Below, one piece after another: positions 58,784 through 62,093 of a stretch of DNA of 64,000 bases. The translations under genes and the position numbers were made by a program. The notes beneath the pieces are model-generated. The model was not told where the DNA came from, made no database searches, and was given only the letters and a program-made list of their open reading frames with translations. This DNA is from Candidatus Latescibacterota bacterium. Its GTDB lineage: Bacteria; Latescibacterota; UBA2968; GCA-2709665. The first letter of the stretch is position 1. Each line of letters opens with the position of its first letter. The stretch is from NCBI GenBank assembly GCA_965237675.1, contig OZ250150.1:5376001-5440000 (forward strand). The letters run 5' to 3'.

Positions 58784-60630
58784 GGGTCGCCGTGCGCCTC
58801 CTTTTGATGGAATTCCTGGAGGGAACGAATCCTGACCGCGCCGTTTCTCTTGATGGATTCAATGCCGGAGACCGCGGCCGACGCGCCGGCCAGAGTGGTC
58901 GTGTAAGGGATGCCGTATTGCAGCGTTGCCTGGCGGATCCTATGATCGTCCGCCTGCGCGGCTTCGCCCGCCGGGGTGTTGACCATGAGGACAATCGCCC
59001 GGTTTTTTATGGCGTCCAGAATATTGGGGCGTCCCTGCTGGATTTTGAGAATGGACTCGGCAAGAATATTGTGCGCCTTCAGCCGGGCGTGGGTGCCGCG
59101 GGTCGCGACAATCCGAAAACCAAGCTCGGACAACCGCCGGGCAACGGGTATCACGGCATCTTTGTCCCGGTCGTTGACCGAGATGAAAACGGCGCCGGAC
59201 GTGGGCAGCCGCACCCCCGCGCCGAGCTGCGCCTTGTGAAAGCTGAGTCCGAAGTCCGTGTCGATGCCCATCACTTCGCCCGTGGACTTCATTTCGGGCC
59301 CCAGCAGGGTATCTACGCCCGGGAACTTGGCGAAGGGTAGAACGGCCTCCTTGACGGCGATGTGATCGAATGTGATTTCACCGGTCAACCCCTGTTCCTT
59401 CAGGGACCGGCCGACCATGGCGCGCGCGGCCACTTTCGCGAGGGGAACGCCGATCGTCTTCGAGACAAAGGGCACCGTACGGGAGGCACGCGGGTTGACT
59501 TCGAGAATGTAGACCTGATTGTCCTGAAGGGCGAATTGCACGTTCATCAACCCCACCACGTTCAGGGCGCGGGCCAGCGCATGGGTGTGGGAACGGAGTT
59601 CATCGAGGTGTTCCGCGGAGATATCGTAGGGCGGCAGCACGCAGGCGCTATCGCCCGAGTGTACGCCGGCGCTTTCGATGTGCTGCATGATCCCGCCGAT
59701 CACCACTGTCGTATCGTCCGCCACGGCGTCAACGTCGAACTCTTGCGCGTCTTCGAGAAAACGGTCGATGAGGATGGGATGCTCGGGTGAGGCCTGTATG
59801 GCTTTCTCCATATAGCTGAGAAGCGCATTCCGTTCGTAGACGATCACCATGGCGCGCCCGCCCAGGACGTACGAGGGTCGGACAAGCACCGGATATCCGA
59901 TGGCGTCGGCCACCGCCACGGCTTCGTCCGCGCTGGTGGCGGTTCCGTTTTCGGGCTGGGAAATGCCGAGTTGCCTGATAAGCGCGCCAAAACGCCTTCG
60001 GTCTTCGGCCAGATCGATGCTGTCCGGAGACGTCCCGATGATTTTCGCGCCGCCGCGTTCCAGGTCGCGGGCAAGGTTCAGCGGAGTTTGCCCGCCAAGC
60101 TGAACGATCACGCCATCGGGCTGCTCCAGGTTCGTGATATTGAGTACGTCTTCGGCCGTGAGCGGCTCGAAATAGAGTTTGTCGGACGTATCGTAGTCGG
60201 TGCTGACGGTTTCCGGGTTGGAATTGACCATAATGGTCTCGTAACCGTCTTCCTTGAGCGCGAAAGCCGCGTGCACGCAGCAATAGTCGAACTCGATGCC
60301 CTGACCGATACGGTTCGGGCCGCCGCCCAGGATCATAATTTTGTGCCGGTCCGAGCGGATGGCCTCGTTTTCGTCTTCGTAAGTGGAATAGTGGTATGGC
60401 GTATACGCTTCGAATTCGGCGGCGCAGGTATCGATGGTTTTGTAAACGGCATGAATATTCAGTTCTTTTCGCAGGGCACGGACGGTCCATTCGCTGGTCT
60501 TCCATAAATGGGCAAGCTGCCGGTCGCTGAAGCCGTATTGTTTGGCCTTGACGAGGTCTCGACGGCCGATCCGGGCGCGCAAGTCGTCGAGGGTGTTTTG
60601 TTTATTGTGCATAACGGCTACGAGACCCAC
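58780..60630 (-). CDS. carB: Carbamoyl-phosphate synthase large chain, C-terminal part
   Basis: GFSDRQLA, DTCAAEF, GGGPNRIGQGIEFDYCCVH, EVNPRASRT, MGS domain; start GTG 60630 or ATG 60612. Confidence 0.93.
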   Translation of the reverse strand: MGLVAVMHNKQNTLDDLRARIGRRDLVKAKQYGFSDRQLAHLWKTSEWTVRALRKELNIHAVYKTIDTCAAEFEAYTPYHYSTYEDENEAIRSDRHKIMILGGGPNRIGQGIEFDYCCVHAAFALKEDGYETIMVNSNPETVSTDYDTSDKLYFEPLTAEDVLNITNLEQPDGVIVQLGGQTPLNLARDLERGGAKIIGTSPDSIDLAEDRRRFGALIRQLGISQPENGTATSADEAVAVADAIGYPVLVRPSYVLGGRAMVIVYERNALLSYMEKAIQASPEHPILIDRFLEDAQEFDVDAVADDTTVVIGGIMQHIESAGVHSGDSACVLPPYDISAEHLDELRSHTHALARALNVVGLMNVQFALQDNQVYILEVNPRASRTVPFVSKTIGVPLAKVAARAMVGRSLKEQGLTGEITFDHIAVKEAVLPFAKFPGVDTLLGPEMKSTGEVMGIDTDFGLSFHKAQLGAGVRLPTSGAVFISVNDRDKDAVIPVARRLSELGFRIVATRGTHARLKAHNILAESILKIQQGRPNILDAIKNRAIVLMVNTPAGEAAQADDHRIRQATLQYGIPYTTTLAGASAAVSGIESIKRNGAVRIRSLQEFHQKEAHGDP

Positions 60631-60644
60631 TCGTACGTTTGAAA

Positions 60645-62093
60645 TTACGCGACGAGGCCCGCGAGTTCCCTTTCGAATTCGGTGATCTGCCTCAGGTTCT
60701 CAAGGAACCAGGGGTCGATTCCGGTCAGGTCGTAAAGTTCGGACACGGGCCAGCCCGCTTCCAGTGCGGCCTTGATATAGAAGAGTCTTTGGGAATTTGG
60801 CACGCGCAGCCGGTGTTCAACGACGGCGCGGTTCAGTGGCGGGATTGCCAGATCTTTCCCGTCGGCTCCGAAACCGGCACGGCCAATTTCGAGGGAACGA
60901 AGTCCCTTCTGAAAGGCCTCTTTAAACGTCCGCCCGATGGCCATGGTTTCCCCAACGGACTTCATCTGAGTGCCCAGCAGGTCTTCGGCCTGCGGGAACT
61001 TTTCGAAGGTCCACCGCGGAATCTTGACCACACAGTAGTCGATGGTCGGTTCGAAAGAGGCGGGCGTTTCCCGGGTGATGTCGTTCCGGATCTCATCCAG
61101 TGTGTATCCGATGGCGAGTTTGGCGGCGATCTTGGCGATAGGGAACCCCGTGGCCTTCGAGGCCAGGGCGGAACTCCGGGACACCCTGGGGTTCATTTCG
61201 ATGATGACGATGCGTCCATCCCGAGGATTCAACGCGAACTGAATATTGGATCCGCCCGTTTCGACGCCGATTTCTCGGATGACGGCAATCGAAGCATCCC
61301 GCATCGCCTGGTACTCTTTGTCGGTAAGGGTCTGCGCCGGCGCCACGGTAATGGAGTCACCGGTATGTATTCCCATGGGATCGAAGTTCTCAATGGAGCA
61401 GATAATGACCACGTTGTCCTTCAGGTCGCGCATCACTTCCAGTTCGAACTCTTTCCACCCGATGATGGATTCTTCGACCAGGATCTCGGTGGTGGGCGAT
61501 AGTTCCATCCCACGAACCGTGAGGTGGTCATATTCTTCCGCGTTATAGGCCGTCCCGCCGCCAGTACCCCCGAGCGTGTAAGACGGGCGGATGATGGCGG
61601 GATAGCCGATTTCGGCAATCACTTCGCGGGCTTCTTCCGGGCTGCGCGCAAATCTCCCTTTCGGGAAATCGACGCCAATCCGGGCCATCGCCTCCTGGAA
61701 GCGTTCCCTGTTTTCGGCCTTTTCGATGGCCTCGGCCTTTGCCCCTATCATCTCCACGTTGAATTTCTCGAGAACACCGCTGTTGTAGAGATCCATGGCC
61801 ACGTTCAGTCCCGTTTGCCCGCCAAGCGTGGGAAGAAGCGCGTCGGGGCGCTCCCGTTCGATAATGGCGGCGCAGACTTCGGGTGCAACCGGTTCCACGT
61901 AGGTCCTGTCCGCCATTTCCGGATCGGTCATAATTGTGGCCGGATTGCTGTTCAACAGAACCACCGTATAACCCTCTTCCTTGAGCGCTTTGCAGGCCTG
62001 TGTGCCGGAGTAGTCGAATTCACAGGCCTGGCCGATGACGATGGGCCCGGAACCGATGAGCATGATTTTCTGGATGTCGTTGCGTCTGGGCAT
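60645..62093 (-). CDS. carB: Carbamoyl-phosphate synthase large chain, N-terminal part
   Basis: [50 protein letters not shown]; stops within the oligomerisation domain after 482 aa. Confidence 0.95.

Follow-up and report, generated by a model that had tools for sequence, protein, structure and literature searches.

The large subunit of carbamoyl-phosphate synthetase (CPS) of Candidatus Latescibacterota bacterium is encoded within a 64,000-nucleotide stretch of contig OZ250150.1 (assembly GCA_965237675.1, positions 5,376,001 to 5,440,000), which we refer to as the window and whose positions are used throughout, and its gene, carB, occupies two open reading frames rather than one. This is very probably a true split gene, inherited from a distant ancestor, in which two adjacent cistrons would give CarB-N (482 amino acids) and CarB-C (610 amino acids, from the ATG at 60612), with CarA completing a three-chain enzyme. 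The gene belongs to the known kind "split CarB", and is neither a ribosomal bypass element nor an artefact. A preliminary description of the window, made from its sequence alone, had drawn attention to a repeated GLVA motif and a hairpin at the junction, and had proposed either a split enzyme, arising by fission through local duplication, or a chromosomal bypass element.

The sequence facts in that description were all found. On the minus strand the junction reads GCG GGC CTC GTC GCG TAA, then tttcaaacgtacga, then GTG GGT CTC GTA GCC GTT ATG (Table 1). The C terminus of carB-N is ELAGLVA-TAA, and the C frame opens with the GTG at 60630, 14 nucleotides (nt) past this stop. The first GLVA copy begins with GGC at 60659 and the second with GGT at 60627, an offset of 32 nt that therefore places the second in another frame; the two codon sets differ at three places, every one of them a third codon position.

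Both halves of the enzyme are complete. Scored with NF003671, the NCBIfam CarB model (the family is also catalogued as TIGR01369), carB-N gives 833 bits over model positions 1 to 473 and carB-C gives 866 bits over positions 478 to 1057, each half alone exceeding the family cut-off of 599 bits. Pfam assigns PF25596, PF02786, and positions 2 to 52 (of 80) of PF02787 to carB-N, and positions 56 to 80 of PF02787, followed by PF25596, PF02786, and PF02142, to carB-C. In alignments with Escherichia coli CarB (PDB 1bxr and others), carB-N reaches residue 477, and residue 21 of carB-C, counted from the ATG, corresponds to residue 490. From these matches across both frames it follows that no portion of CarB has been lost, as the preliminary description had it, and that the break, as the alignments place it, is in a surface loop inside the oligomerization domain, at E. 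coli CarB residues 478 to 489. All of the CarB domains are present and in order, divided between the two frames; the DNA does not encode a single polypeptide of ∼1,070 amino acids, which is interrupted by the stop at 60645-60647 and the change of frame, and it does have the makeup of a split CarB, with two intact genes that each specify one complete ATP-grasp half. A search for a second carB found none in this genome (99.9% complete), and carA is intact and encoded elsewhere in it (524 bits against a cut-off of 307). Databases already contain proteins of 480 to 483 amino acids, which one source calls "carbamoyl-phosphate synthase large subunit".

The same architecture is found throughout the order. 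Every junction was cut out and compared in 41 genomes, comprising this genome and 40 relatives, and the CarB match is interrupted at NF003671 positions 474 to 479 in all 41. The N frame likewise ends in a stop in all 41, behind a conserved tail, ELA(G/A)L(V/M)x, and this stop lies 12 to 14 residues past the anchor in 39, the exceptions being genomes G019 and G016 (shorter anchor match). A homologous start stands at the head of the C frame, M-x-K-Q-(R/H)-T-L-x-D-L-x-x-R-I, and is an ATG in 39 of the genomes; in G037 and G038 it is a GTG, behind GGAGA or AGGA by our reading of the printed sequence. In the genome described here the homologous start is the ATG at 60612, not the GTG at 60630. The split enzyme of the preliminary description is thereby borne out: the split is common to every relative examined in this set, far beyond chance. 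In G019 (L016) the usual carB-N stop reads CAA, where its sister G015 has TAA, and carB-N runs 13 codons further, to a TAA 3 nt before the carB-C ATG.

What separates the two genes varies freely. Four genomes have an overlap of the ATGA type (a spacer of -4 nt) and 12 have 2 nt (TAAccATG and similar); spacers of 3, 7, and 11 nt occur in one genome each, 21 nt in four, 27 nt in two, 30 nt in one, 32 nt in seven, 35 nt in three, and 37, 53, 125, 147, and 250 nt in one each. Relative to the N frame, the C start is in frame 0 in nine genomes, frame 1 in three, and frame 2 in 29. A stop and a start with a freely varying spacer between them are the anatomy of two cistrons, and translational coupling classically uses junctions of the ATGA and 2-nt kind. 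The length of 32 nt is common to seven genomes of the genus, whose spacer sequences differ, and the stretch that holds the second GLVA copy reads SSAAV, SPVGA, SPVIA, SPAAA, or NPVAT in the others; the codons from GTG 60630 to ATG 60612 are unconserved; they are spacer, not conserved protein. In G005 (L014:1218-1467), whose spacer has 250 nt rather than 21 to 35 nt, the unit gagtaaac occurs three times in tandem; the T-rich stretch after these units, made of tcgt(t/c)tt-like repeats, looks like an imperfect inverted copy of them, and the insert may be a small mobile element, or one resembling repetitive extragenic palindromic (REP) sequences, that is tolerated between the cistrons.

Distant carB loci from named genomes have one open frame across the site in 77 of 80 cases (52 to 74% identity), and the other three are cut by contig ends. 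For the class to which this bacterium belongs we considered 132 genomes in four families (f1 to f4), 43 matches lying outside those listed. Among the matches listed, none of the 56 genomes of f1 to f3 has an uninterrupted whole carB; nine have a match of whole length that contains in-frame stops, and each of the others has two matches. The carB halves in these families score 825 to 874 bits, and an f3 genome that was checked directly (G041) has the same break. In f4, at least 66 of the 76 genomes have an uninterrupted whole carB, and of the remaining ten, one has no match, G071 has a frameshift, G063 has an in-frame TAG, and the others are cut by contig ends. The frameshift lies near amino acid 418 (L126/L130), and the TAG, at amino acid 578, replaces the Asp of EFDYCC (L124); these two breaks may be sequencing errors or young pseudogenes.

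The split also extends beyond the class. In a sample of 125 genomes of the phylum with completeness of at least 90%, 20 are from outside the class, and four of these have the same break: G148 (family f12), and G149, G150, and G151 (family f13). Past the anchor, their split N frames run exactly 12 residues to the stop (as in VDFADELGGLVA-stop), and the start of their C frames is 18 or 19 residues ahead of the next anchor. In f13 the halves are on different contigs (C5 and C39 in G149; C44 and C55 in G150), and the partner is absent from the 1.5 kb of flanking sequence on each side. Because no ribosomal event can join unlinked halves, the enzyme must, at least there, work as separate chains. The suggestion that the fission arose by local duplication does not fit this distribution; the split is ancient, being in the 56 genomes of f1 to f3 and in f12 and f13, whereas the GLVA repeat is private to one of the 41 genomes of the order. 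Alongside the unlinked split gene, G149 to G151 (L134-L136 with L139-L141, L144, L145, and L148) have a further carB, whole and from a divergent lineage (1495 to 1518 bits), and two whole carB paralogues are present in G132, G134, G139-G141, G145, G057, and G118/G119 of the same phylum.

Whether the phylum has seen one fission or two was addressed with trees of the N half only, built from quick searches, with L118 left out (too short) and L117 entered with its stop read as a gap. In a tree of 142 rows the main-lineage CarBs of the phylum form one starred clade of 48, within which the split forms fall into two groups, and a mixture-model tree of 55 rows agrees with the two split groups. The split f1-f3 forms are one clade (Shimodaira-Hasegawa-like approximate likelihood ratio [SH-aLRT] 90), beside the whole forms of f4 (100) and f9, and the split f12-f13 forms are another (95), beside the whole forms of f10 and f8. 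The forks between the split groups are weak (82 to 91), and one clade comprising all 23 split rows is not rejected by an approximately unbiased (AU) test (log-likelihood difference, 8.68; p 0.289). That the stop falls in an identical column favors one origin. Re-fusion in f4 was considered and set aside: the loops there are short (18 to 22 amino acids) and no remnant of the split termini is seen in the whole forms, which speaks against it. From anchor to anchor the loop is 17 to 26 residues in 35 whole CarBs of the phylum (five more have no anchor match), and 30 (12 + 18) in the genome described here. The loop at E. coli residues 478 to 489 may be a recurrent permissive point of CarB fission, possibly hit twice in the phylum and perhaps again in methanogens.

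We suggest that one transcript, probably including the downstream tetratricopeptide repeat (TPR) gene, would yield both CarB chains, with carB-C translated from its own start at ATG 60612. In relatives with ATGA or TAAnnATG junctions, termination-reinitiation coupling appears most likely; at the 32-nt spacer of this genome, initiation would most likely be of the ordinary kind, on a start region that is rich in A and lacks a clear Shine-Dalgarno motif. The first seven codons of carB-C have only 7 G or C in 21 nt, in a gene with ∼59% G+C overall, and such an A-rich head suits an unstructured initiation region. CarB-N, CarB-C, and CarA would then assemble into a three-chain CPS, as in Aquifex aeolicus; we infer assembly with CarA because this is the sole carB copy, carA is intact, and the split is conserved. 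The split was inherited from a distant ancestor and maintained under selection. The TPR gene, which probably belongs to one operon with carB-N and carB-C, has an ATG that overlaps the carB-C TGA as ATGA; a GGAGG stands 13 nt upstream, within the end of carB-C. The GGAGG indicates that the organism uses Shine-Dalgarno sites at some genes.

Several points weigh against this interpretation. First, the two separate proteins, their assembly, and their mode of initiation are predictions from genes whose anatomy, conservation, integrity, and reproducible sequence are directly observed. Second, no Shine-Dalgarno motif is evident before ATG 60612, nor before carB-N. Third, the GLVA repeat is uncommon for any single junction (0.6 to 0.8%): chance produces a four-residue repeat of the tail inside 60 nt in 621 of 100,000 Markov sequences and in 839 of 100,000 real 60-mers of the window, and such a repeat follows three of the 274 open frames of at least 100 amino acids in the window. 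It is therefore uncommon per junction, yet expected once or twice per window. Finally, carB-C could start in this species at GTG 60630, with a six-residue extension, VGLVAV, that repeats the tail of the N chain. The open frame has no earlier start codon than this GTG, and the repeat would then be protein sequence. However, the six residues are unconserved even among the seven genomes with 32-nt spacers, it is the ATG that is conserved in the order, and the GTG is inside the stem region of the hairpin; a start at this codon is accordingly unlikely, and initiation at ATG 60612 is the reading that we carry forward.

A gene model broken in two is often a pseudogene, inactivated by a frameshift or a stop, and such breaks are found singly in G071 and G063 of the sister family f4. 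We nonetheless consider inactivation of carB very improbable, because the same break is present in all 56 genomes of f1 to f3 among the matches listed, with high-scoring halves, the genome, nearly complete, has no carB besides the split one, and both the start codon and the new termini are conserved.

Programmed bypassing would require the ribosome to take off near the TAA and land on the repeated codons, 32 nt further on, and would give one full-length CarB with the junction peptide ELAGLVAVMHNK. The junction resembles phage T4 gene 60 and yeast mitochondrial byps in that a stop adjoins a possible site of take-off, a short sequence is repeated, and the gap has a hairpin, and CTC is identical at the 32-nt offset. 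It differs from them in that it has no matching codon beside the stop, is unconserved, and is followed by an independent start codon that is conserved. The codon before the TAA is GCG and the would-be landing codon is GCC, a mismatch, and CTC, three codons upstream of the stop, is the only codon to recur identically at this offset. A downstream four-residue repeat of the N tail is present in this genome alone among the 41 of the order, and in seven of the 41, this genome not included, the C frame repeats the last sense codon somewhere between the stop and the start.

The gap can fold into the hairpin given in the preliminary description, which is particular to this genome. This hairpin is the minimum-energy fold of a 41-nt piece that begins at the stop and ends shortly beyond the ATG (-9.0 kcal/mol), but its z-score is -1.10, 28 of 200 shuffled sequences fold as well, and the z-score in a 75-nt context is 0.06. 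It sits downstream, over the would-be landing site. A consensus fold of the seven 32-nt spacers (RNAalifold) finds no shared helix (-0.6 kcal/mol), and 19 spacers of 20 to 60 nt have a mean fold z-score of -0.17. Small hairpins about midway along the spacer also occur in several relatives, but in shifted registers, which we treat as the normal behavior of G+C-rich sequence. What the relatives keep is a stop and a start codon, whereas the spacers range from -4 to 250 nt, in three frames, and one of them has a repeat-rich insert; a Met start conserved in all 41 genomes is not needed by a landing site, and in f13 there is no linked half on which to land. With no conserved take-off and landing pair, repeat, or hairpin, the proposal of a chromosomal bypass element is not upheld, and we regard bypassing as extremely improbable. 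The preliminary description had named two outcomes that together would tell against bypassing, nonconservation of the repeat and hairpin and the presence of two separate polypeptides; the first is what the 41 genomes show, and the second we infer from the gene arrangement. It is similarly hard to credit that this species alone makes, besides the two chains, a little full-length CarB by hopping or shifting now and then from ELAGLVA to the repeated GLVA codons, at a young, private bypass site born in the spacer. Both the GLVA repeat and the hairpin are incidental to a spacer that changes fast, and they illustrate that a take-off and landing look-alike can arise there by chance.

A fused product spanning the junction could also come from stop-codon readthrough or programmed frameshifting, and nine of the 41 genomes do have both halves in one frame, with only one or two stops between them. 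However, the relative frame is 0, 1, or 2 depending on the genome, the spacer length varies freely, no conserved slippery site is seen in the printed junctions (no dedicated search was made), and the f13 halves are unlinked, such that either route seems exceedingly doubtful. That the junction is an artefact of assembly or sequencing is suggested by nothing beyond the general possibility and has a negligible probability, as contigs from four public runs of two studies match 60300 to 61000 exactly with zero differences or gaps (the comparison used assembled contigs, that of run X5 ends at 60907, and one run may be the source of the assembly), and forty other genomes have the same architecture. 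Runs X3 and X5 each also have a second contig whose match is confined to 60320-60342 and 60515-60536, the sequence between these being diverged and of equal length; this contig is probably the carB of a related organism in the same sample.

A two-gene large subunit has a precedent in A. aeolicus, where, according to PMC6022934 and PMC3917532, CPS.A and CPS.B each encode one ATP-grasp half and act with GLN, and the purified chains form one active complex with the glutaminase chain (Ahuja et al. 2001, cited in PMC6022934 and PMC3917532). The arrangement described here is alike in having two large-subunit genes of one ATP-grasp half each, and the f13 halves are unlinked as in Aquifex. The genes described here differ in being adjacent and probably cotranscribed. 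The Aquifex break probably falls at the end of the oligomerization domain (CPS.A being about 557 amino acids), whereas the break here is inside it (PF02787 positions 2 to 52 and 56 to 80). In Methanocaldococcus jannaschii, the products of MJ1378 and MJ1381 are ∼482 and ∼618 amino acids, with a break that may be at or near the same loop; M. jannaschii is archaeal, and if the site is the same the fission would be independent. Our literature search turned up no paper on split carB genes in this clade and none on the M. jannaschii break point. Compared with whole CarB (E. coli, PDB 1bxr/1jdb), every domain is present, in order and at high score, and the difference is that there are two chains instead of one.

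For annotation, the carB of this clade should be entered as a pair of genes, the second of which begins at the conserved Met, and should carry no flag for a frameshifted pseudogene or for recoding. For enzymology, a natural break inside the oligomerization domain is tolerated across several families, whether the halves are adjacent, coupled, or unlinked, and these families offer ready-made split sites and new termini with which to study the assembly of CPS halves.

Table 1. Features of the split carB locus and its downstream neighbor, in window coordinates
Feature	Position	Strand	Description
carB-N	60645..62093	minus	482 amino acids + TAA; N-terminal chain of carbamoyl-phosphate synthetase large subunit; pre-ATP-grasp, first ATP-grasp, first two thirds of oligomerization domain
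First GLVA copy, GGC CTC GTC GCG	60648..60659	minus	Last four codons of carB-N
Stop TAA of carB-N	60647..60645	minus	
carB-N/carB-C spacer	60613..60644	minus	32 nt, from TAA to conserved ATG
Hairpin AACG-UACGAG-ugggu-CUCGUA-gc-CGUU	60613..60639	minus	6 + 4 base pairs, 5-nt loop
GTG	60628..60630	minus	Earliest possible start of C frame; probably unused as start
Second GLVA copy, GGT CTC GTA GCC	60616..60627	minus	C frame, within spacer, upstream of conserved start
carB-C, from conserved ATG (60612..60610)	58780..60612	minus	610 amino acids + TGA; last third of oligomerization domain, second pre-ATP-grasp and ATP-grasp, MGS-like allosteric domain
TPR-repeat gene	57002..58783	minus	593 amino acids; downstream of carB-C

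Upstream of the locus, 50 to 80 nt before the carB-N start, there is a G+C-rich inverted repeat, gagccccggtgataccggggc, on the minus strand at window positions 62141-62170, with a run of seven T ahead of it.

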